From Minisyncoccota bacterium (GTDB lineage Bacteria; Patescibacteriota; Minisyncoccia; Phycocordibacterales; UBA9973), in NCBI GenBank assembly GCA_031401615.1, contig JANNRS010000054.1:1-47673 (forward strand): 47,673 bases of DNA, read 5' to 3'. Of the stretch, positions 3,103-47,673 are shown piece after piece (position 1 is the first letter of the stretch; each line of letters starts with the position of its first letter). The position numbers were made by a program, and so were the translations under genes. The notes beneath the pieces were generated by a model. That model did no database searches. It was not told the origin of the DNA and saw only the letters and a program-made list of their open reading frames with translations.

Positions 3103-3584
3103 GTTATTTGATTTTCCACTGGCTTAATCTCCCCACTCGCAACCTTTGACCTATACTCCAACACTAATTCCTTGCTCGGACTGTACTGTGATTTCAGTAA
3201 ATCCTCGGTCAGAATATCCAAAGGAACAGTCTGGGGATATTTGGCATACTTACTGTGGGTAAAATACTTACAAACATAACCATGTCCTGATTTCTCAACC
3301 TCACCATCCAAGGCATCACAGATAAGCTTCTGTTTGTCATACTGGATACGACCAGTCGCTTGTTTCTCCCTCTCTTTATTACTAGCCTTCTCTTCGGGGG
3401 TCATCTGTTTAGTTCCCATTTTATCCACATAATCTCTTATCAATTTCGGATATGCTGCCGCTATCATAGAGCAGAGAGCCGAAGTGAAGGTCGGCATACC
3501 ATTTCTCTCCATCACTTCATTCACCATTTCCACTGCTCTCTCAGGGAAGGATATAGTCTTTAGAATTTTAGTTTTCTTTTCCAT
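3099..3584 (-). CDS. Protein with N-terminal ribbon-helix-helix-like DNA-binding domain (161 aa)
   Basis: The N-terminus KTISFPERAVEMVNEVMERNGMPTFTSALCSMIAAAY fits a beta-alpha-alpha RHH pattern. The C-terminal part is unknown. Confidence 0.5.
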   Translation of the reverse strand: MEKKTKILKTISFPERAVEMVNEVMERNGMPTFTSALCSMIAAAYPKLIRDYVDKMGTKQMTPEEKASNKEREKQATGRIQYDKQKLICDALDGEVEKSGHGYVCKYFTHSKYAKYPQTVPLDILTEDLLKSQYSPSKELVLEYRSKVASGEIKPVENQIT

Positions 3585-3744
3585 CTTTTTTCAATGTGTT
3601 ATAAAGTAAGACTAAGGCATTCTGAACAACAGACGATATAGTCAAGTAAGTCGCTCCTCCATCATTTTTCATTATCTCCTCTATCATCTTCCTATGCCTC
3701 GGAGTAAAGCCAATAGGCATCTGTTTTAATTTTATTCTTTCCAT
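3568..3744 (-). CDS. Small RHH (CopG/Arc-like) regulator candidate (58 aa)
   Basis: Hand-translated: MERIKLKQMPIGFTPRHRKMIEEIMKNDGGATYLTISSVVQNALVLLYNTLKK. It is the first gene after the 3797-3805 box region and overlaps the next start. Confidence 0.45.
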   Translation of the reverse strand: MERIKLKQMPIGFTPRHRKMIEEIMKNDGGATYLTISSVVQNALVLLYNTLKKDGKEN

Positions 3745-3796
3745 ATTTAAGTTAATACTATCTTACAATACCACTAAACCCACCGCAACAAGTTGT

Positions 3797-3805
3797 TGTG
3801 GATAA
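3797..3805 (-). promoter_or_regulatory. Perfect DnaA-box-type 9-mer TTATCCACA (minus strand), part of a 22-mer shared with 43813-43834
   Basis: Plus strand reads tgtggataa. The 22-mer cgcaacaagttgttgtggataa (3784-3805) matches 43813-43834 at 20/22. It lies upstream of the RHH gene. Confidence 0.6.
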
Positions 3806-5738: not shown

Positions 5739-5849
5739 TTATTTTTTGTTTACTTTTAATTTTTTACGCCACGCCACCATATCTTTTGAATGAAACAATG
5801 GATGTTGTTCACCAAAATTTTGGATGGTGTTTGCATTTTTTTCTGTCAT
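5739..5849 (-). CDS. Hypothetical small protein (36 aa)
   Basis: Hand-translated MTEKNANTIQNFGEQHPLFHSKDMVAWRKKLKVNKK; ATGA overlap with the stop of 5846..6265. Confidence 0.3.
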   Translation of the reverse strand: MTEKNANTIQNFGEQHPLFHSKDMVAWRKKLKVNKK

Positions 5850-6265
5850 TTTATTTTTAATAATCTATGCTTATTGAACAAATGACTTTCTAAATGAAAA
5901 AATGTCATTTTACAAACTGGACACGACTCCAACTTTCCTTTCTTTTTCTTATTCACACCCTCAATCCTTTCTATCAATTTCTTTCGCTCCGACTCACTCA
6001 CTCTTCTGCCTTCACCTTTCCTATCTCCTTTCTTAAACTGATATTTTTTACCACCTTTCAAAAGATTTTTAACATACTCCTCCCTATGCTCCTCAAAATG
6101 CTCTTGTTTTTTCCTTTTAACTTCACTCCCAATAAGCGACATAGTAAAAGGCAAATCAAATTCTTCTTTATAGTCTCGCGATAATACGCCGTGTCTGTGC
6201 CATAAATGCGAACCTAAATGTGCAAATCTCTTACCACACATCAAACATTTTATTGTTTTTTCCAT
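5846..6265 (-). CDS. MucR/Ros-type C2H2 zinc-finger protein with two finger copies (139 aa)
   Basis: The N-terminal CLMCGKRFAHLGSHLWHRHGVLSRDYKEEFDLP follows the Ros/MucR pattern CLxCGKxFxxLxxHLxxxHGxxxxxYxxx(W/F)xLP. There is a second copy, CPVCKMTFFHLESHLFNKH. Confidence 0.6.
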   Translation of the reverse strand: MEKTIKCLMCGKRFAHLGSHLWHRHGVLSRDYKEEFDLPFTMSLIGSEVKRKKQEHFEEHREEYVKNLLKGGKKYQFKKGDRKGEGRRVSESERKKLIERIEGVNKKKKGKLESCPVCKMTFFHLESHLFNKHRLLKIK

Positions 6266-8597: not shown

Positions 8598-8762
8598 TTA
8601 TTGATTAAATACGGCGTGGCTAATAATCAAATAGGCATACAAGAATACATATATAAGAGATAGAGCTAAACATACTTTTATACCACTCCACAAGGCACCA
8701 ATAACTCTTTTTATTTTCTTCTCTCTTTTATATTGTTTAATGTCAAAGTATTGCATATTCAT
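8598..8762 (-). CDS. Small membrane protein (54 aa), first gene of the leftward early block
   Basis: Hand-translated MNMQYFDIKQYKREKKIKRVIGALWSGIKVCLALSLIYVFLYAYLIISHAVFNQ; lies directly upstream of the lysozyme-like gene. Confidence 0.45.
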   Translation of the reverse strand: MNMQYFDIKQYKREKKIKRVIGALWSGIKVCLALSLIYVFLYAYLIISHAVFNQ

Positions 8763-8794
8763 TTATTATTTACTCTCTAATAATGTATTAAGTA

Positions 8795-8824
8795 TATACT
8801 AACCTAATACTAAGTCAATACTAA
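8795..8824 (-). repeat. Three direct TTAGTAT(T/A) repeats with exact 11-bp phasing
   Basis: The minus strand reads TTAGTATTgacTTAGTATTaggTTAGTATA, with copies starting at 8824, 8813 and 8802. It lies between box 8836-8844 and the first early gene. Confidence 0.6.
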
Positions 8825-8835
8825 TATATACAAAC

Positions 8836-8844
8836 TGGGGATAA
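8836..8844 (-). promoter_or_regulatory. DnaA-box-like 9-mer TTATCCCCA (one mismatch), minus strand
   Basis: Plus strand reads tggggataa. It sits at about the expected start site of the leftward promoter 8851-8880. A TAGTAT hexamer lies 34 nt downstream. Confidence 0.4.
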
Positions 8845-8850
8845 CTCAAA

Positions 8851-8880
8851 ATTACAACACAGCTTGACACGACTTGTCAA
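8851..8880 (-). promoter_or_regulatory. Leftward early promoter: TTGACA - 18 nt - TGTAAT
   Basis: The minus strand reads TTGACAagtcgtgtcaagctgtgtTGTAAT. The -35 hexamer is one arm of the palindrome TTGACAcgacTTGTCAA (8864-8880). Confidence 0.5.
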
Positions 8881-8882
8881 AA

Positions 8883-9014
8883 CGTGTTCCAGCTATGTAA
8901 AAAACGGTCAAAAAAATATGTGTTATGTATAAATGATATAATGTGCTATATATGTGTAATATATAGTATAAATAATGTATAAATTAAAAGGTGAAATGGG
9001 GTAGCTGGAACACG
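8883..9014. repeat. Perfect 13-bp inverted repeat (cgtgttccagcta 8883-8895 / tagctggaacacg 9002-9014) flanking 106 bp of AT-rich DNA
   Basis: Each arm is preceded by TTGACA-N13 in its own orientation (8864-69 on plus, 9033-9028 on minus). The spacer holds GTATAAAT at 8927, 8966 and 8977, a fourth copy lies at 9021, and TGaTATAAT is at 8934-8942. Confidence 0.8.
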
Positions 9015-9186
9015 ATTGTGGTATAAATGTCAAATGGTAATGGCTAGAAATAAGGCTTATTTGACAGGGGTTTTCTGTTTTATGTTCGCGGTATGATGTG
9101 TATGTTTTGAAAAAAGTTTTTATTTTCTGCCGTTTCTATGCTTAAAAACTCCTCCACCACTTCATTTTTTTTGTAATCCCTATACT

Positions 9187-9212
9187 AAAAAAAAAAAAAA
9201 AAAAAAAAAAAA
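9187..9212. repeat. Homopolymer A26
   Basis: Counted directly: 26 consecutive A, intergenic, immediately after a CCTATAC copy (9179-9185). Confidence 0.95.
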
Positions 9213-9420
9213 TGTTTTATAAATGAAGTATACATACCTGCGAAGGTGTTTTGCCCTGCGGGGCTATGTTTCTTTTGGAGAAACTCCCCCAACCGCCCGC
9301 GAACGGCACCACCAAATGCCAAAATATGGCTTAACCACAACATATCTTGTTTATGTGTCGCACAATATACATTGTGCGACATTAAAAATATGGCTCATTG
9401 ACTATACAGAATGACAAAAC

Positions 9421-9566
9421 ACACCCCCTATACCCCCGACAAGGCACCCCCCGACCCAGTGGAAAATACCGTATAGGTACTCCCACCCAATAAACGGCAG
9501 AAATTCTGTTTCGTATCCTATACACCAGAAATTTCCATTTATATTTCAAACGGCACCCCCCTACCC
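9421..9566 (+). repeat. C-rich repeat block in the non-coding region upstream of terS
   Basis: GGCACCCCCC occurs at 9443-9452 and 9552-9561. CCTATAC occurs at 9427 and 9517, and at 9471 in reverse complement. AACGGCA occurs three times. The 11-bp inverted pair ttctgccgttt (9125-35) / aaacggcagaa (9492-9502) is also present. Confidence 0.7.
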
Positions 9567-9628
9567 CTAATTTCCTATAAGAAAATCATTTCCCACTATT
9601 AGGTATAAAAAATTTTGAAATTTCAAGG

Positions 9629-9637
9629 TTGTCCACA
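9629..9637 (+). promoter_or_regulatory. DnaA-box-like 9-mer TTGTCCACA (one mismatch), 33 nt upstream of TAGAAT 9671-9676
   Basis: Direct reading. TAGTATT follows 3 nt later, as at 16639. The 16-mer atagtattaacttaaa (9640-9655) recurs inverted at about 3746-3761. Confidence 0.45.
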
Positions 9638-9667
9638 ACATAGTATTAACTTAAAATATTTGAGGTG

Positions 9668-9676
9668 TGGTAGAAT
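9668..9676 (+). promoter_or_regulatory. Extended -10 promoter TGgTAGAAT without a -35, about 140 nt upstream of terS
   Basis: tgtggTAGAATagagaccATG; no TTGACA-like hexamer at 17 +/- 1 nt. Confidence 0.45.
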
Positions 9677-9683
9677 AGAGACC

Positions 9684-9782
9684 ATGCAACCTTCTGCTAA
9701 AATATTTGTCATACCAAATGTCCCTTGTTTTGGAGCTAACGATATTTCGGTTTTAGGTTTTTGTAGAAAGACTAGAGATTAG
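9684..9782 (+). CDS. Possible leaderless 32-codon leader ORF (MQPSAKIFVIPNVPCFGANDISVLGFCRKTRD)
   Basis: The ATG lies 8 nt after the -10 hexamer, and the stop codon lies inside the loop of hairpin 9766-9800. This could equally be a non-coding short transcript. Confidence 0.2.
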   Translation: MQPSAKIFVIPNVPCFGANDISVLGFCRKTRD

Positions 9783-9800
9783 GTTCTCTAGTTTTTCTAT
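9766..9800 (+). terminator. Hairpin + T-run directly upstream of terS (terminator/attenuator candidate)
   Basis: 8-bp perfect stem actagaga/tctctagt (9771-78 / 9785-92), extendable by gaaag/ttttc, then ttttctatttt. The terS ATG is at 9813. Confidence 0.5.
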
Positions 9801-9812
9801 TTTAAATTCTAA

Positions 9813-10406
9813 ATGGAAGAGAAAAAACCAAAAATAACAGAAGATGAATTTGAGGAGCAAGTAGCTTCTCTTGAAAATGAAATAAAAAAAATTGTTCCAA
9901 AAAAATTGGAAATTTTAAAGCGCCTCGCTTATGAAATATCTATTATTGGATTGTCTGAACAGGAGGCTTGTATGGTTGTGAATTTTGATATAGCGGAGCT
10001 TATTGCCTTGAGGCAAAAGCATGAGAAGATTGAGAGACTTTTTAAAATGAAATCTCTTGAATATAAGCGAGGATTACTTAAAACTTTATCTAAAAAAGCT
10101 AGAGAAGGAGATGAAAAACTTGCCCAGTGGCTACTTGAGGCTAAGTATGGTGAAGAATACAACCGTAGACGCGGTGGAGGTGGTAATGGAGCCGAAGGGG
10201 GTGAGGATATGCTGGGGGCGGCGGTGGATTTTATACAGAAGAGTGCGGGGGGAGGGGAGAGTGTATTGGGGAGTGGGGGGTTGGTGAAGAAGGCGAGTGG
10301 TTTTGGGTCGGGGGTGGTTGGAGATACGAGGCGGGAGGTGTTGCCGCCAGTGCATGAGGCACTCAAAGATAGGGCGGAGAAGATTGTAAGTAACTTAGTT
10401 GTATGA
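9813..10406 (+). CDS. terS: Terminase small subunit candidate (HTH N-domain, Gly-rich linker)
   Basis: Lies immediately upstream of terL and overlaps it. HTH-like GLSEQEACMVVNFDIAELIALRQ. Gly-rich segment RRRGGGGNGAEGGED...GSGGLVKKASGFGSGVVG. Confidence 0.55.
   Translation: MEEKKPKITEDEFEEQVASLENEIKKIVPKKLEILKRLAYEISIIGLSEQEACMVVNFDIAELIALRQKHEKIERLFKMKSLEYKRGLLKTLSKKAREGDEKLAQWLLEAKYGEEYNRRRGGGGNGAEGGEDMLGAAVDFIQKSAGGGESVLGSGGLVKKASGFGSGVVGDTRREVLPPVHEALKDRAEKIVSNLVV
10168..10350 (+). other. G-rich, GC-rich tract inside terS (G-quadruplex-capable; pac-site candidate)
   Basis: G runs G6-a-G4-agagtgtatt-G4-agt-G6 at 10257-10290, plus further G3-G5 runs. Strongly atypical for this AT-rich genome. 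Confidence 0.6.
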
Positions 10407-16487: not shown

Positions 16488-16653
16488 TCTTGGGGAATTG
16501 CATCCCCAGGAAATTGAGCTGATTTGGCTTGTTCGCCACGTTTATAGGTTTGGTAAGGTTGAGATTGAGACACGGGATGGCTTACCAGTGGATGTGGTCA
16601 AAACGATTGAAAGGACCAGGCTTGGAGAGTTTACTCGGTTATCCACAGGTTAG
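16432..16653 (+). CDS. Small YezD/DUF2292-like protein; start uncertain (ATG 16432, or TTG 16498)
   Basis: The C-terminal part of track ORF 16282..16653, IELIWLVRHVYRFGKVEIETRDGLPVDVVKTIERTRL, resembles the remembered DUF2292 pattern L..L.yGsV.I.vqDGkvvqIEktEk.rl. No canonical start lies after the upstream stop. Confidence 0.4.
   Translation: MLQNQKGEKQLLAKKTKDNLGELHPQEIELIWLVRHVYRFGKVEIETRDGLPVDVVKTIERTRLGEFTRLSTG
16639..16647 (+). promoter_or_regulatory. Perfect DnaA-box-type 9-mer TTATCCACA, 33 nt upstream of TATAAT 16681-16686
   Basis: Direct reading; lies in the last codons of the small ORF; TAGTATT follows 3 nt later, as at 9629. Confidence 0.55.
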
Positions 16654-16678
16654 TATTGTTAGCATATTGAGTTAATAG

Positions 16679-16686
16679 TGTATAAT
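16679..16686 (+). promoter_or_regulatory. Promoter-like octamer TGTATAAT heading the decoration/major-capsid unit (no -35)
   Basis: aatagTGTATAATtg; begins the 317-nt non-coding gap before 16970. Confidence 0.5.
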
Positions 16687-16969
16687 TGTGGTGTAGTTCC
16701 CTGAAAGCTACAAATTGTTAAGCCCACCGAAGAACGGCGGCTGTGATGGTTCACAAATTTTGTGGATTGTTGCGGTCGCTGTTCTTTTTGTAAGTGAACT
16801 TATGGACCTATAGAAATATGGCACTATAGGTTTGCTTACAATGCAAAGTCGGGGAGACAACCCTAGTTAACGAAACATTGCTTAGAAAAGTTACTGGCTT
16901 TTCTTCGGAGATTGAAACTCTGGTCAACAAACAAGCATTTTTAAAAAACAGTATTTAATCATAAAAAAA
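16687..16969 (+). promoter_or_regulatory. Long (about 280 nt) highly structured 5' leader / possible ncRNA upstream of the capsid genes
   Basis: Several stems were found by hand: gtagtt/agctac (about 16692), aagaacggcg/cgctgttctt enclosing cacaaa/tttgtg followed by a T-run, gtaagtgaac/gtttgcttac enclosing cctatag/ctatagg, and caatg/cattg. No ORF of 60 aa or more. Confidence 0.45.
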
Positions 16970-43033: not shown

Positions 43034-43503
43034 TAGAAGTTTTTGAATTCCGCTTCTGTCTTGGCTTTTTCTTCAAGCTCCGCTACAAACGCTTCGTCAA
43101 ATTTTCCATTTGTGTAAACATTTATAACTTTCAAAGGATTGAAGCCTTTTTTGCGAGCTGGTTTTTCGTCAGTGAATTCAACTCTGACTTTTTGTCCGAG
43201 TTTTATATTTCTGAATTTATTGTCTATCATCTTTGGGCTTTCTTTGGAGCCACCACCGACATTCCAAATTTCTCCCTCCTTAATAACGATAGGCTCTTCA
43301 ATCACCACTTTTTTGGCATCAATGTCGTGGAATTCACCGCCGTCAGCCTTAATCTCGTAAATCTTGACCATCTCCTTTTCTTTGCCTGGGAGCTGGCTTT
43401 GGATTTCTCTAACTGAAATTAGAGTCCCCATGATGTTGTCTCCGATTTTGTTAAACTTAGCGAAGGAATTTTTCACCTCCTGCCATTCATTTTTTTCACT
43501 CAT
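43033..43503 (-). CDS. Possible ssDNA-binding protein (156 aa)
   Basis: Adjacent to the exonuclease. Beta-rich core, with an acidic C-terminal tail ending in an aromatic residue (AELEEKAKTEAEFKNF) like T7 gp2.5-type SSBs. Inference only. Confidence 0.35.
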   Translation of the reverse strand: MSEKNEWQEVKNSFAKFNKIGDNIMGTLISVREIQSQLPGKEKEMVKIYEIKADGGEFHDIDAKKVVIEEPIVIKEGEIWNVGGGSKESPKMIDNKFRNIKLGQKVRVEFTDEKPARKKGFNPLKVINVYTNGKFDEAFVAELEEKAKTEAEFKNF

Positions 43504-43587
43504 ATAATTTTTAACTGTTAACTAATAACTGATAAATTTCTTATTCTCCAACCTCCAAATAAGAAGAAAGCATAGAGCCACTTATCT

Positions 43588-43758
43588 CTATACTTTCTTC
43601 TGATTTTGATAGTACTTCCTTATACGATAAACCCAAGTCCTGTCAATATTAAATATTTCTCCTATCTCAATATCAGTAAAGCCTTCTTTGCTTAATTGAG
43701 CTATCAGATTGACCCTCTTTTCTAGTACCGTTTTTTTTGTTAATTTGATTCTTGGCAT
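43588..43758 (-). CDS. Small HTH DNA-binding protein (56 aa), first gene of the leftward recombination block
   Basis: Hand-translated MPRIKLTKKTVLEKRVNLIAQLSKEGFTDIEIGEIFNIDRTWVYRIRKYYQNQKKV. The HTH is GFTDIEIGEIFNIDRTWVYRIRK. Confidence 0.5.
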   Translation of the reverse strand: MPRIKLTKKTVLEKRVNLIAQLSKEGFTDIEIGEIFNIDRTWVYRIRKYYQNQKKV

Positions 43759-43759
43759 G

Positions 43760-43768
43760 TTATCCACA
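43760..43768 (+). promoter_or_regulatory. Perfect DnaA-box-type 9-mer TTATCCACA, 32 nt upstream of TATAAT 43801-43806
   Basis: Direct reading; 1 nt from the ATG of the divergent HTH gene. Confidence 0.6.
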
Positions 43769-43777
43769 GCTAACGCT

Positions 43778-43806
43778 TTGATAAAGTCAATTATAAATAC
43801 TATAAT
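43778..43806 (+). promoter_or_regulatory. Near-consensus sigma70-type promoter TTGATA - 17 nt - TATAAT (rightward replication block)
   Basis: ttgata aagtcaattataaatac tataat; the first gene's ATG is at 43859. Confidence 0.6.
43790..43795 (-). promoter_or_regulatory. Divergent -10 hexamer TATAAT (minus strand), back to back with the rightward -10
   Basis: Plus strand reads attata. It lies 30 nt downstream (minus sense) of box 43834-43826. TTGTTG lies at 19 nt as a weak -35. Confidence 0.4.
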
Positions 43807-43825
43807 AAATAACGCAACAACATGT

Positions 43826-43834
43826 TGTGGATAA
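43826..43834 (-). promoter_or_regulatory. Perfect DnaA-box-type 9-mer TTATCCACA (minus strand), overlapping the palindrome ACAACATGTTGT (43817-43828)
   Basis: Plus strand reads tgtggataa; inverted relative to 43760-43768. Confidence 0.6.
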
Positions 43835-43858
43835 GATTATAAGTTAACCTTAACTTCC

Positions 43859-43993
43859 ATGGAAGAGGAAACAAAAATTGAAGGTCAGGTCACAGGTAAT
43901 CCTGAAGAGGCAACTCCTGTTGAACCTGCTCCTGAGGTAGCCCCAGAAGGTGCAGAGCCTACCCCAACAGGTGAGGATACTCCTGCAGAGTAG
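43859..43993 (+). CDS. Very acidic Pro/Glu-rich peptide (44 aa)
   Basis: Hand-translated MEEETKIEGQVTGNPEEATPVEPAPEVAPEGAEPTPTGEDTPAE; the first ORF after the rightward promoter. Confidence 0.4.
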   Translation: MEEETKIEGQVTGNPEEATPVEPAPEVAPEGAEPTPTGEDTPAE

Positions 43994-44004
43994 TTTGTAT
44001 ATAA

Positions 44005-44026
44005 GGCGGACAATTTATTGTCCGCC
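44005..44026 (+). terminator. Strong hairpin between the acidic ORF and the HNH gene
   Basis: ggcggacaa-tttA-ttgtccgcc (9-10 bp stem); no clear U-run. Confidence 0.4.
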
Positions 44027-44031
44027 TAATT

Positions 44032-44505
44032 ATGCAAATTAAAGCCGCAACAAGCATTAAAATACCACTCACAAAAGGAAAATTCGCTATTATAGATGCG
44101 GGTGATTTTGATTTAATTAGTAAATATAAGTGGTATTGTAATAAAGACGGATATGCTTTAACCACAACAGGTAGCACAGGAACTAGAATGCACCGATTAA
44201 TTCTGGGGGCAAACAAAAAAGAAATTTGCGACCATGTTAATTTAAATAAATTAGATAACAGAAAATCTAATCTTCGTATTTGCACACAAAAAGAGAATCT
44301 GAGAAATAGAAGTAAAAACAAAAATAACTCATCAAAATTTAAAGGTGTTTTTTGGCATTCAACAGCTAAGAAATGGATGGTGCAAATTTATGCCGATAAA
44401 TTTATTTATTTAGGACTTTTTACAAACAAGAAAAAAGCAGCCTTTGCATATAATATTGCAGCCAAAATATATCATGGTGAATTTGCTTATCTAAATAAAA
44501 TATGA
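44032..44505 (+). CDS. HNH homing endonuclease with AP2 DNA-binding domain (157 aa)
   Basis: HNH_3-type MHRLILG...CDHVNLNKLDNRKSNLRICTQKENLRN. AP2-type SKFKGVFWHSTAKKWMVQIYADKFIYLGLFTNKKKAAFAYNIAAKIYHGEFAYLN. Confidence 0.85.
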   Translation: MQIKAATSIKIPLTKGKFAIIDAGDFDLISKYKWYCNKDGYALTTTGSTGTRMHRLILGANKKEICDHVNLNKLDNRKSNLRICTQKENLRNRSKNKNNSSKFKGVFWHSTAKKWMVQIYADKFIYLGLFTNKKKAAFAYNIAAKIYHGEFAYLNKI

Positions 44506-45557
44506 ATTTACCTCAAAATATAAAAGAATGGTGGAATACTAGAGGCGTTTCAGATGTTATTTTAGATGAATATGAGATTAGTTGGAACGGTAGTGAAATA
44601 GTGATACCTATTAAAGATATTACTGGAAAAATATTATTTAACAAATATAGGAAAAATCCTTTTAATTTGGAAAATTCTGGACCAAAATATAAATATGATA
44701 AAGGGGGTTCGGTCACTCTATATAATGAAGCCATACTATCTAAAGCTTCCGCAAATGAACATGTGTTTATTTTAGAAGGGGAAGGTGATGTCTTAACCAT
44801 AACTTCTTTTGGATTTAAAGCTGTCACCTCTACTGGTGGAGCAAGTTCGTTCCAAGAATCTTGGGTAGAAAAATTTAAAGACTTAAATAATATAATAATA
44901 TGTTTAGATAATGACATCGCTGGTATTGACGGCGCTATAAAAATCCAAATGTTTATCCCATCCGCGAGGATATTAATGATTCCTACAACTTATGGTAAAG
45001 ATGTAACTGAGTTTTTACAATCTCACTCTATTCAGGATTTCATCAGTCTCCCCGCATATCAATATCCTATCCCTCAAGATTTGGGAGTCTCACCAGACGA
45101 AAAGCCTATAAAAAAAAAGAGACTTATAAATAATAAGATAGAGCAATTTAAGGATGCAGATAAAACTCTATCTCTAATGAGCCGAGAGCAACTCCGACTT
45201 GGTAAAAATGTAAACCACATCACCATAATGAGAGATTATGTCAGTAATAAAATAAGGCACTATAAAATAATAGCCGACCGTTTCAAAAACAGACAGAATT
45301 TCAGCTATGCCCACTCAGTAGAAGAAATCAAAAAAATCCCCATCACTAAATTCATTGATTTCAATTCCGCTGGCTACGCTCCCTGCATCTGGCACAACGA
45401 CTCCCACCCCTCCATGTTCTACAATAATGAGACCAGTAAATTTCCCAACACTGTAAAATGTTTCTCTTGCTCACAAATGGGAGATGTAGTGGATGTCATC
45501 TGCCAAATACGAGACTGCGACTTCAAAGAAGCCGTTAAATTTTTAACTGGAAAGTAA
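44502..45557 (+). CDS. DnaG-type primase with permuted domain order (catalytic TOPRIM core N-terminal, CHC2 zinc finger C-terminal)
   Basis: Primase-core motifs IVIPIKDITGKILFNKYRK...PKYKY. TOPRIM motifs FILEGEGDVLT and CLDNDIAGIDGA. CHC2 finger CIWHNDSHPSMFY...VKCFSCSQMGDVVDVI at about 45384-45500. Confidence 0.8.
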   Translation: MNLPQNIKEWWNTRGVSDVILDEYEISWNGSEIVIPIKDITGKILFNKYRKNPFNLENSGPKYKYDKGGSVTLYNEAILSKASANEHVFILEGEGDVLTITSFGFKAVTSTGGASSFQESWVEKFKDLNNIIICLDNDIAGIDGAIKIQMFIPSARILMIPTTYGKDVTEFLQSHSIQDFISLPAYQYPIPQDLGVSPDEKPIKKKRLINNKIEQFKDADKTLSLMSREQLRLGKNVNHITIMRDYVSNKIRHYKIIADRFKNRQNFSYAHSVEEIKKIPITKFIDFNSAGYAPCIWHNDSHPSMFYNNETSKFPNTVKCFSCSQMGDVVDVICQIRDCDFKEAVKFLTGK

Positions 45558-45591
45558 AATGAATAAAAACCGCAACATAAAAGTTGATGAT

Positions 45592-45654
45592 TGAAAGCGC
45601 TTACTGACATCTAGGCTCGTTGCGGTGCCTAGTTTTGCTCAGTAAGCGCTTTCA
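45592..45654. repeat. Perfect 16-bp inverted repeat (long hairpin) between the primase and ATPase genes
   Basis: tgaaagcgcttactga (45592-607) / tcagtaagcgctttca (45639-54). The arms extend imperfectly by gttgat.../...atcaac. The 31-nt loop contains ctagg/cctag and caccgcaac in reverse complement. Confidence 0.85.
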
Positions 45655-45672
45655 GCAATCAACGCTGAAAAT

Positions 45673-47025
45673 ATGAAGCCAGAAGAAATAAAAAAAGTAG
45701 AAATCCGAACCTATGCCCAGCTCCTAGCTGAGTTTGATAAATTCCTCTTACTTGAGGATAGAGGCGCACTGAAGGCTATCTGTGGCTGTATTATTGGTAA
45801 CCAAATGCACGGCGACCCCGTGTGGCTCTTCATAGTCGGCGCTTCTTCAGGGGGTAAGTCGGAGCTTATCCAAGCCTTCAATACCATCATAAACCCCTCT
45901 GGTGCGCCTCTAGTAACCCCTATATCTGACCTCACAATCAATGCCCTAGCCTCTGGGCAAAAAAGAGCAGGTAAAGAGACATCTTTGCTCCAAAGAATGC
46001 CCTACGGCGGCATCCTGTCCTTTAAGGACTTCACCTCTATGCTTGCTAAGTCCAAGGAAGCCCAACAGGAAATTTTCAAACAATTGAGAGAGGTTTATGA
46101 CGGCAGATACAACAAATTGACTGGTACTGGTGACAATATTGACTGGCTCGGCAAAGTGGGAGCTTTGGCAGGGGCTACCGAGATTATCTACGAATACCAA
46201 GAACAATTTGCAGCCATGGGCGACCGATTCATCATGTATTCTTTGGTCCAACCAGACCGTGACAAGCTAGTTGATTTTATAATGAACGAAGAGAGGATGA
46301 ATATTGACCGAGGGGAGATGCGCGCCCATCTTCAGGAATGTGTCAAAAGTTATTTATCCCACATACTAGGAGAATTTAAAGAAGAAGAAATCCATCTCTC
46401 AGAAACTTTAAAAAATGACCTTAAGGCAGTAGCAAATTTTTGTACTAGAGTTCGTTCGGGCGTAGTGATGGATGACAGAAGAAAACACCTCGTTCGCTTC
46501 GTACCTTCAGTTGAGATGCCTACCAGAATGTTGAATCAACTCATCACTCTAGCCAAAGCATTCATCGCTATGCGTAGAGCAGAGCCAGGAGCCAAAGATA
46601 CATCTGATGGAAACCTTACAATGGAAGAACAACAGCTCCTTTTTAAAATTGCTTTTGACTCTATCCCAATAAAACGCCGAATGGCTCTTAAAGCTCTGGC
46701 AAAATATGAGGGGGGAGTTTCTTCAAAAGGTTTGGCTATCGCCATCAGTTATCAAACAGAGGTCGTAACTGCATGGCTCGCTCAACTGAATGGTCTTGGG
46801 ATTTGCAGCCGTGAGGTCAAAGGTGGAAATCAGGGGGATATGTGGAAGCTCCTCGGTCAATACCGAGCCATCATGGTAAAGTTTGAACACATAGAGGTGA
46901 CTCAGGACTCTCTAGTTGATGCTGACGACTACGAAGACACTGGTTGGAACGAGAAGAGTCAGACCAAAAGAGAAGATGAGATGGTTTCTTTAGACCCGAT
47001 AGAGCAAGAATTCCAAAATTTTTAA
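45673..47025 (+). CDS. P-loop NTPase, putative primase-associated replicative helicase (DUF3987/VirE-like?) with C-terminal wHTH (450 aa)
   Basis: Walker A FIVGASSGGKSELIQ. A winged-helix-like segment lies at ALKALAKYEGGVSSKGLAIAISYQTEVVTAWLAQL. Sits next to the primase. Confidence 0.55.
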   Translation: MKPEEIKKVEIRTYAQLLAEFDKFLLLEDRGALKAICGCIIGNQMHGDPVWLFIVGASSGGKSELIQAFNTIINPSGAPLVTPISDLTINALASGQKRAGKETSLLQRMPYGGILSFKDFTSMLAKSKEAQQEIFKQLREVYDGRYNKLTGTGDNIDWLGKVGALAGATEIIYEYQEQFAAMGDRFIMYSLVQPDRDKLVDFIMNEERMNIDRGEMRAHLQECVKSYLSHILGEFKEEEIHLSETLKNDLKAVANFCTRVRSGVVMDDRRKHLVRFVPSVEMPTRMLNQLITLAKAFIAMRRAEPGAKDTSDGNLTMEEQQLLFKIAFDSIPIKRRMALKALAKYEGGVSSKGLAIAISYQTEVVTAWLAQLNGLGICSREVKGGNQGDMWKLLGQYRAIMVKFEHIEVTQDSLVDADDYEDTGWNEKSQTKREDEMVSLDPIEQEFQNF

Positions 47026-47026
47026 C

Positions 47027-47263
47027 ATGGCACTAATCGTAGAAATAAAAATAAATACAGAGAAAATCTACACTATGGCAGCCGAGCGTATGTATGATAA
47101 AAAGACTGGTCTCAACCCTTACAAAATAAGGCTCTACGACCCTGAAATGAATGTTATTCGTGAAACTAATATAGGGCATGTTTACGAAGACGGCGCTATC
47201 AAACTGGTAGCCAGAATGTGTAATGAATTTAGTGAAAATGGAATTATACGAAAATATAAATGA
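47027..47263 (+). CDS. Hypothetical protein (78 aa)
   Basis: Track ORF; ATGA overlap with the helicase start. Confidence 0.5.
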   Translation: MALIVEIKINTEKIYTMAAERMYDKKTGLNPYKIRLYDPEMNVIRETNIGHVYEDGAIKLVARMCNEFSENGIIRKYK

Positions 47264-47673
47264 AACTCAGAGATTATCAACAAGATGCTTTCAATAAAAT
47301 AATTGAGGATATAAATATCCCAGGGAATTCTTTAGTCGTTATGCCAACAGCCTCTGGTAAATCTCATGTCATTGCCTCTACTGCAAGTATTTTGGAGCAT
47401 GTACTTATTTTACAGCCGTCTCAAGAGTTACTTTCTCAGAATAGAGACAAATTAATGTTAATTGTTAATCAAGAAGAAATCGGGACTTACTCGGCTTCAT
47501 TTAATGAACGAACTATAAAAAGATTCACCTTCGCAACAATCCAGTCCGTCTACACTAAACCTGAACTTTTTAAACATATTAAACTTGTCATTATTGACGA
47601 GGCACACAATCTTGCCCCAAGGGCGCTTGATACAATGTATACCTCATTCATTCAGGCAATTGGAAGCCCAAAA
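47260..47673 (+). CDS. SF2 DEAD/DEAH-box helicase, N-terminal part (runs off the window end, continues at base 142 via the overlap)
   Basis: Hand-translated MKLRDYQQDAFNKIIEDINIPGNSLVVMPTASGKSHVIAS...VIIDEAHNL. It has DYQ, Walker A PTASGKS and DEAH. It is not in the ORF track because no stop lies before the window end. Confidence 0.85.
   Translation, partial: MKLRDYQQDAFNKIIEDINIPGNSLVVMPTASGKSHVIASTASILEHVLILQPSQELLSQNRDKLMLIVNQEEIGTYSASFNERTIKRFTFATIQSVYTKPELFKHIKLVIIDEAHNLAPRALDTMYTSFIQAIGSPK
47533..47673. repeat. Terminal overlap copy 2 (identical to 1..141)
   Basis: See copy 1. Confidence 0.95.

Follow-up and report, generated by a model that had tools for sequence, protein, structure and literature searches.

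The stretch of DNA considered here (contig JANNRS010000054.1, 47,673 nucleotides, called the window where the whole of it is meant) is a phage genome of about 47.5 kb, circularly assembled, and the element in question is its early control region, between positions 43760 and 43834, in which two divergent promoters are each preceded by the 9-mer TTATCCACA, a candidate binding site (box) for the replication initiator DnaA. The 9-mer is not special to this locus but is the 5′ part of a promoter unit repeated through the genome, with the plan TTATCCACA, 8-9 nt, TTGnnn, 16-19 nt, TAnnnT, and the region is two such box-promoter units placed head to head and overlapping. On balance host DnaA may be regarded as a transcription factor whose action at these sigma-70-type phage promoters depends on position and orientation, with its site centred near –48, and most likely the phage uses it to drive or gate transcription, rather than only to start replication. 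What carries this reading is the sequence of the elements, their conservation in related phages, the fixed spacing and orientation of the box with respect to the –35 hexamer and the repetition of the unit through the genome. The control region consists of the following elements.

43760-43768, plus strand: left candidate DnaA box, TTATCCACA, perfect at 9/9, 9 nt 5′ of the rightward –35 and 1 nt from the ATG of a helix-turn-helix (HTH) gene.
43834 to 43826, minus strand: right candidate DnaA box, TTATCCACA, perfect at 9/9, 8 nt 5′ of the –35 of the leftward promoter.
43778-43806, plus strand: rightward promoter P_R, with –35 TTGATA at 43778-43783, a 17-nt spacer and –10 TATAAT at 43801-43806.
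43790-43817, minus strand: leftward promoter P_L, with –35 TTGCGT at 43817 to 43812, a 16-nt spacer and –10 TATAAT at 43795 to 43790.
43815-43827, no strand: inverted repeat CAACA-N3-TGTTG, overlapped by a 12-bp palindrome and covering the –35 of P_L and positions +3 to +15 of P_R.

The original prediction had described this region as a mirror-symmetric divergent control region, and the description is borne out: the region is real, conserved and clearly functional, it contains two overlapping promoters with each box 5′ of one and 3′ of the other, and the boxes, the two –10 hexamers, the TTGATA –35, the perfect 12-bp palindrome at 43817-43828 and the 22-mer of the right box all lie, to the base, where they had been placed. 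The leftward –35, TTGCGT, which had not been named before, makes the minus-strand promoter complete, and P_L and P_R overlap completely; ATTATA at 43790-43795 is the minus-strand TATAAT and lies 5 bp away from the plus-strand –10. On the rightward side, TTGATA-17-TATAAT scores 11/12 and is the top sigma-70-like match within 41.0-47.7 kb. Judging from the hexamers, transcription would start near 43813 for P_R and near 43783 for P_L; the left box stands at about +15 to +23 of P_L and the right box at about +13 to +21 of P_R, so that each box lies at about –44 to –52 relative to the promoter it precedes and at about +13 to +23 relative to the other. The 57-bp core between the boxes (43769-43825) has a G+C content of 26%, against 39% for the genome. 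Five perfect copies of TTATCCACA occur in the window (3421+, 3797-, 16639+, 43760+ and 43826-) where 0.33 would be expected, a number reached in 0 of 100 shuffles, and both sites of the pair qualify by sequence as high-affinity DnaA boxes when these are defined as TTATCCACA or a sequence within TT(A/T)TNCACA. The 22-mer of the right box recurs at 3784-3805 with 20/22 identical positions and had no match in any shuffle, in a search that set the two differing positions as wildcards and hence scored 0 mismatches.

The inverted repeat CAACA-N3-TGTTG keeps its arms around three different centres (ACA, AGT and GAT) at two sites of the window and in the related contig L016. It could perhaps be an operator for an early phage regulator, a status made uncertain by the fact that the repeat is found in only about half of the relatives and that the conserved TG+TTG of the –35 doubles as its right arm; a covariation test of the repeat against the recognition helix of the HTH protein gave no clean pattern.

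Outside the control region, the same box-promoter unit is found at three more places in the window.

3805 to 3760, minus strand: second unit, with the box at 3805 to 3797, 8 nt, TTGCGG at 3788 to 3783, 17 nt, and TAAGAT at 3765 to 3760.
9629-9676, plus strand: third unit, with TTGTCCACA, 8 nt, TTAACT, 19 nt, and TAGAAT, heading the structural operon that begins at 9813.
16639-16686, plus strand: fourth unit, with TTATCCACA, 8 nt, TTGTTA, 19 nt, and TATAAT, within the 16488-16969 gap of the structural region.

The second of these units precedes a gene for a 58-aa putative ribbon-helix-helix (RHH) protein (3568-3744, minus strand), and it is to this unit that the 22-mer repeat at 3784-3805 belongs. 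When the definition of the box was relaxed, 6 of the 8 boxes in the window preceded a promoter-like unit, against 0.29 in shuffles (maximum 3), and the units head the RHH, structural, capsid-region, replication and recombination blocks of the genome. The arrangement extends to other phages: contig IMGVR_UViG_3300032322_001825 carries at least three box-promoter units, and boxes at the counterparts of 3805, 9629 and 16639 are present in contigs retrieved with the terminase. In this last set, a unit equivalent to 3805-3760 is present in L266, L268, L269 and L273; L265 and L266 have TTTTCCACA-8-TTGACA-17-TAAGAT at the place equivalent to 9629; and in L267, L270, L272 and L273 a perfect box lies at a distance from the terminase gene equivalent to that of the 16639 unit. 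The gap at 16488-16969 is itself without a long open reading frame (ORF): a small ORF ends at the box, and a stretch of about 280 nt, ORF-free and without an Rfam match, may be an RNA.

For the conservation analysis, relatives were sought through an alignment of the 450-aa protein encoded rightward of the box pair, in order to avoid selection on the boxes; a single-protein query gave no match among viral contigs, so that the alignment query was required, and a DNA search of the region against deposited phages also gave no match. In 11/11 of the closest viral-contig relatives (L138-L148) the primase gene is preceded by an inverted pair of boxes that are 56-76 bp apart and have no more than 1 mismatch between them, and the same is true of L174 and of two contigs binned as Saccharibacteria (L220 and L227), while a metagenome scan found the pair in several further relatives; the spacing of the pair is 64-69 bp in 11/14 relatives. 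Contig L016, which came from a pattern search and has about 60% protein identity, keeps both inverted boxes, the back-to-back –10s and the inverted repeat by the right box. In all cases there is a small HTH gene leftward and the primase gene or a small acidic ORF rightward. The invariant columns of a nine-way alignment are the left box, the rightward –35 (TTTG), the two –10s, the leftward –35 (CAAC on the plus strand) and the right box; boxes, –10s and –35s therefore form conserved islands of the intergenic region in phages whose proteins are 46-60% identical.

The right box is perfect in every close relative examined, and together with P_L it follows the plan TTATCCACA-8/9 nt-TTGCGT/TTGCTT-N16-18-TATAAT/TATACT, with a perfect box, in 13 of the 16 distinct relatives whose 450-aa protein is at least 46% identical, the distance to the leftward –35 being always 8 nt, sometimes 9. 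The left box is either invariant or a TTTTCCACA/TTGTCCACA variant, and it stands 9 nt 5′ of the rightward –35 in the window, L138 and L174 and one helical turn further in L140. Among relatives from the metagenome scan with 46-53% identity, L347 and L353 have retained no more than the right box and its promoter, and in L365 the boxes of the pair are further apart. The variants observed in relatives, TTGTCCACA, TTTTCCACA, TTATACACA, TTATCAACA and TTATCCACT, are all of a kind tolerated by DnaA boxes, in what is a small sample.

Some of the searches led elsewhere. The matches to a 20-mer pattern in L001-L011, L015 and L017 are mostly coding or due to chance and were set aside as not being promoter units, and scanning viral contigs for inverted box pairs in general gave mostly unrelated box clusters or coding matches and served only to pick L033, L097 and L107. 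In a number of unrelated viral contigs (L018, L019, L028, L034, L042, L067, L068, L084, L106, L110, L117, L127, L134 and L137) DnaA boxes flank the palindrome AGTCTTATATAAGACT, which is a second recurrent DnaA-box layout in phage-like DNA. Within 5439-5640 of L014 (equal to about 12880-13082 of L143) a further box-promoter unit precedes non-coding DNA that has a T-arm-like GGTTCGAATCC and ends in ...GCCA; that the unit might be a tRNA promoter was considered but not borne out, as ARAGORN calls no tRNA there.

At 32 of 156 distinct perfect sites in family loci, a TTG-16/18-TAnnnT promoter begins 8-9 nt after the box, and a small second group has the –35 at 17-20 nt, about one helical turn further; in the reverse orientation the same 156 sites show no offset peak and only 3 sites at 8-9 nt. 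The –35 and –10 hexamers are conserved at a spacing of 16-18 nt, with the consensus TTGcnt and TATAaT shared by the 32 distinct units, and the box has a defined position and orientation before them. Family loci of about 1.29 Mb in all contain 95 distinct perfect sites, where about 10 would be expected, and 19 of the 32 units carry the flank AG-TTATCCACA, which is also that of E. coli R4. A fixed distance, a single orientation and a hint of helical periodicity are what is expected of a factor that touches RNA polymerase, and not of an origin element or of a passive sink.

As for how the region might work, host DnaA would occupy both boxes once the phage DNA enters the cell and, sitting near –48, always the same way round and on the same face of the helix, would most likely help RNA polymerase to bind, as is thought for E. 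coli nrdAB; the DnaA bound in each unit would also lie at about +13 to +23 of the opposite promoter. Since the promoters overlap entirely, only one polymerase could be seated at a time, and the pair would in this way apportion transcription between a leftward block (HTH protein and PD-(D/E)XK exonuclease) and a rightward block (acidic ORF, HNH protein, primase, MCM-like ATPase and superfamily 2 (SF2) helicase). The likely outcome would be that the recombination and replication operons fire in dependence on DnaA and exclude each other. Through the inverted repeat an early phage regulator, the HTH or the 58-aa protein, may shut both promoters. Because the unit heads the other main transcription units of the phage, DnaA would be a general cofactor of phage transcription.

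This scheme depends on which protein reads the 9-mer. That the 9-mers are DnaA boxes, as the original prediction had it, is the most economical reading: they are exact copies of the strongest DnaA-box consensus, they are single asymmetric sites fitting a monomeric DNA-binding domain, their variants are the classical ones, and they stay constant while the recognition helices of the adjacent HTH proteins vary (DRTWVYRIR, NRSTVLRII, HRSVIKRVS, TKGTISKIV and others). Such 9-mers are bound tightly by monomeric DnaA, whatever its nucleotide state; a perfect TTATCCACA inside a bacterium is a nanomolar DnaA site, so that binding would hardly be avoidable, and the presence of the unit on presumably early and late promoters alike fits a factor that is there before any phage protein. 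With these sequence features in hand, we consider it very probable that host DnaA is the binder. The competing view is that a different protein (the 56-aa HTH protein, the 58-aa putative RHH protein, a Ros/MucR-type zinc-finger protein or another host factor) reads the 9-mer and that its identity with the DnaA box is incidental or a mimicry. The HTH gene does always abut the pair, a homologue adjoining it in 13 relatives; the units at 43834 and 3805 head operons that start with small DNA-binding proteins, as in autoregulation; the HTH proteins form one family, which makes a conserved site not impossible; and the shared 22-mer suggests a footprint of more than 9 bp at those two promoters. However, an asymmetric single 9-mer is unlike the operators of dimeric HTH or RHH proteins, its flanks differ among promoters (…ACA… or …G…), it does not follow the changes of the recognition helix, it stands on the promoters of all gene blocks, including those that would fire before phage proteins exist, and DnaA would in any case bind a perfect TTATCCACA in a bacterium; a reader other than DnaA thus appears quite unlikely.

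A DnaA-dependent origin, which the original prediction had proposed for the same DNA, would have DnaA and transcription open the AT-rich core, alone or in addition to a promoter role, for the loading of the MCM-like helicase and primase or of host DnaB. Two perfect inverted boxes do flank a core of 26% G+C directly 5′ of the replication genes, at a fairly constant spacing in the relatives, no DNA polymerase or Rep-type initiator is detected by sequence, and promoter-dependent origins are known in lambda, where DnaA stimulates the transcriptional activation (PMC3985674, PMC8203912). The core, however, is filled by four conserved promoter hexamers and has no trinucleotide-repeat run of the DnaA-trio type; the 480 bp at 43560-44040 contain no more than two sites with 1 mismatch or none, and with up to 2 mismatches allowed the count is 5, where windows of the genome have 2.2 on average and 8 at most, so that the box cluster with weaker sites of oriC-type origins is not seen. 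Iterons or direct repeats are likewise absent, 43300-47673 holding no repeat family beyond chance two-copy matches, and GC skew tracks gene orientation without a signal at 43.8 kb. Moreover, the locus is not unique, as the box-promoter unit with its fixed box/–35 geometry recurs at no fewer than three other loci (3805, 9629 and 16639), some relatives (L347 and L353) keep only the right box and its promoter, and other candidate origin elements exist, namely a hairpin 5′ of the MCM-like gene and a 1-kb non-coding region at the GC-skew minimum. The proposal of an origin at the box pair is hence not upheld, and we regard it as unlikely. A hybrid, in which the pair is both control region and origin, DnaA switching on the promoters and opening the core for the MCM-like helicase and primase, would amount to a hybrid origin, combining a bacterial initiator with an MCM-type helicase, in a phage of ultra-small Patescibacteria that has no need of an initiator of its own, and to DnaA as general cofactor of all the main promoters; its chances, too, seem slender. 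In this connection, no Rep family match was obtained, and an MCM-like AAA+ protein with a winged helix is encoded 1.8 kb away from the pair. Finally, the boxes might serve mainly as a DnaA sink, halting host replication by titration while the phage copies build up, or as a tether of incoming DNA to membrane-bound DnaA, without acting on promoters directly. In favour of such a function are the five high-affinity sites per genome and the conserved boxes of T5-like phages, for which a non-replicative role has been proposed (bioRxiv 10.1101/866236); yet neither sink nor tether needs a fixed 8-9-nt distance or a single orientation relative to the –35, and the T5 boxes, paired 3 bp apart within inverted repeats, have another layout, which makes this explanation very improbable.

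The reading of DnaA as a promoter factor has its own difficulties. The box pair is absent from most relatives below about 45% identity in the 450-aa protein, so that this replication module can do without it; at 19 nt, the units at 9629 and 16639 have spacers that are long for sigma-70; and the perfect box at 3421-3429 lies inside a 161-aa gene, on the opposite strand and without a convincing promoter, where it may be a chance occurrence or have another role. Family loci share descent, and the 32 units may accordingly represent perhaps five or six independent promoter positions. The host is a guess from the binning of metagenome-assembled genomes (MAGs), and the box consensus used may not be that of this host; literature searches found no report on DnaA boxes of Patescibacteria. 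Binding by DnaA, activation through this binding, the role of the inverted repeat and the start sites, placed from the hexamers only, are what we infer from sequence. A box at +13 to +23 could equally repress, and the sign of the net effect of DnaA is for this reason not predictable.

The alternative of a genetic switch, also part of the original prediction, fares no better in the sense of a lysis-lysogeny switch: no integrase or CI-type repressor was seen among the 20 proteins scanned, and the lone inverted repeat is not present in all relatives. An early autoregulatory circuit through the HTH protein is plausible. Two other candidates were tried and rejected. A role at the RNA level for UGUGGAUAA, present in both 5′ leaders, fails as a general explanation, as the box is untranscribed from the 3805, 9629 and 16639 promoters and its distance from the start codon varies from 1 to 47 nt; a Bacteroidota-type promoter (TTG-N19-TAnnTTTG), considered because the genes are without Shine-Dalgarno sequences, does not agree with the –10 consensus of the family, TATAaT/TATACT.

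Two non-coding features of the window deserve a description of their own. Between the primase and the MCM-like genes lies a hairpin (45583-45663) with 25-nt arms and an RNA fold of –46.2 kcal/mol (z –7.7); at the corresponding position L138, L140, L141, L142, L143 and L220 have hairpins that are just as long but unrelated in sequence, and the element may function as an origin, as an attenuator or as a site for RNase III. A non-coding stretch of about 1 kb (8762-9812) separates the leftward early genes from the structural operon; in it lie 27 consecutive A (9187-9213), a hairpin of 16 pairs (9763-9800) and the minimum of the cumulative GC skew.

The genome to which the control region belongs is closed by a 141-bp terminal direct repeat (1-141 and 47533-47673), which is an assembly overlap and accounts for the difference between the length of the window and the true size; the gene for a DEAD/ResIII (SF2) helicase spans the contig ends. 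ARAGORN found no tRNA in the window and an Rfam scan no family. Leftward from the box pair follow the 56-aa HTH_23 protein, a 156-aa protein and a 280-aa PD-(D/E)XK exonuclease, and rightward the acidic ORF, an HNH-AP2 protein, the DnaG-type primase, the 450-aa P-loop protein and the SF2 helicase. The genes of most concern here are the following.

43588-43758, minus strand: 56-aa HTH protein, first leftward gene, Pfam HTH_23 with an E value of 3e-7.
43859-43993, plus strand: 44-aa acidic ORF, first on the rightward transcript, with a hairpin after it at 44001-44030.
44502-45557, plus strand: DnaG-type primase, with a Toprim domain and a CHC2 zinc finger at the C-terminus.
45673-47025, plus strand: 450-aa MCM-like AAA+ ATPase with a C-terminal winged helix, AlphaFold2 mean pLDDT (predicted local distance difference test) 89.

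The gene assignments made earlier held for the HTH, primase, helicase and exonuclease genes, all of which have matches, whereas the 58-aa ‘RHH’ protein has no family match and its name is a guess, and the 156-aa protein is without assignment. Similarly, the statement that the phage encodes no recognisable initiator or DNA polymerase is correct by sequence, the 20 scanned proteins having shown no DNA polymerase, but as regards the initiator it holds only in part, given the MCM-like AAA+ protein with its winged helix. The latter has no Pfam or PHROG match, and a profile search against PDB sequences was empty; with its predicted structure, Foldseek retrieved MCM2-7, archaeal MCM and BchI (E about 1e-7, template modelling (TM) scores of 0.4-0.46) as well as the helicase parts of phage primase-helicases. 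More than 400 homologues occur in metagenomes, all unnamed, and the protein is a candidate replicative helicase or origin binder on the strength of this model. For the product of the acidic ORF a role as DNA mimic or anti-restriction protein may be considered; ORFs that are likewise short, very acidic and of low complexity stand at the equivalent place in L016 (4548-4832, minus strand) and in L142 (3979 onward). The Ros/MucR-type zinc-finger protein is encoded by an early gene at 5846-6265 on the minus strand (Pfam E value 2e-8).

The closest genome-bin matches of the 450-aa protein are MAGs labelled Candidatus Saccharibacteria, Kaiserbacteria and other Patescibacteria (L220, L222, L223, L225, L227, L228 and others). 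L220 is a 46,955-bp contig that carries the box pair, and L228, a remote relative, occupies the end of a 154-kb contig binned as Saccharibacteria, next to two large serine recombinases. These labels suggest a patescibacterial host, as a lead drawn from MAG binning only. The phages and the gene regulation of Patescibacteria are almost unknown, and the family appears to belong there. If DnaA does act as proposed, the programme of the phage would be tied to the level or state of the host replication initiator, a simple way for a regulator-poor virus to sense whether the cell supports replication, and DnaA would be a dependency factor of the phage; the transcriptional role of DnaA would then extend from few host genes and the weak sites of lambda to a promoter element that is phased and activator-like. 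With its fixed distance of 8-9 nt and single orientation, the unit offers a clean, testable geometry for a contact between DnaA and RNA polymerase, and as a conserved element it could mark the promoters, and possibly the hosts, of such metagenomic phages.

Among known systems, the nearest are bacterial promoters regulated by DnaA. DnaA activates or represses promoters through nearby boxes, for example that of nrdAB; bound just 5′ of the –35 it is thought to stabilise RNA polymerase, and boxes within or 3′ of the promoter repress (PMC8203912). The E. coli nrdAB and dnaA promoters, like those described here, have high-affinity boxes close to a sigma-70 promoter (PMC8203912). Unlike the DnaA-regulated promoters of E. 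coli, these are phage promoters in which a perfect 9-mer stands 8-9 nt from the –35 in one orientation, and the unit heads most transcription units, two of them fused head to head.

In lambda the DnaA sites are weak, lie 3′ of pR/pO and are not phased with the –35, whereas the boxes described here are perfect, upstream and repeated genome-wide; lambda also has its own initiator O and origin iterons, and here no iterons and no O-like protein were found. The likeness to pR and ori-lambda lies in a phage that has no polymerase of its own, in DnaA near an early replication-gene promoter and in the coupling of transcription with replication (PMC3985674, PMC8203912). In lambda, replication needs transcription that is stimulated by DnaA (PMC8203912; PMC3985674 and its references 18, 33 and 43). 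T5-like phages have eight conserved DnaA boxes in the injection-stop region, for which a different mechanism, that of a membrane tether, has been proposed (bioRxiv 10.1101/866236). They share with the present phage conserved consensus boxes in non-coding DNA and a proposed role other than that of an origin; the T5 boxes, in contrast, form pairs 3 bp apart in large inverted repeats of the terminal repeat and are not promoter-associated. A description of phased DnaA-box promoters in phages was not found in literature searches.

Origins of the oriC type, P1 oriR, pSC101 and RK2 resemble the region in having inverted perfect DnaA boxes beside AT-rich DNA next to replication genes, but here no box cluster, low-affinity sites, 13-mers, DnaA-trios, iterons or Rep gene were detected, and the AT-rich core consists of promoter hexamers. 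In tetA/tetR of Tn10 and in PR/PRM of lambda, divergent promoters share a control region, and a small HTH protein may feed back on both; the present region differs in that its conserved sites are two asymmetric 9-mers with the sequence of a host-protein site, in place of dyad operators for the encoded regulator, in a phage without detected lysogeny functions. Set beside these systems, the region is read as two fused DnaA-box promoters of a class used throughout the phage family, and this reading replaces that of an origin or a genetic switch.

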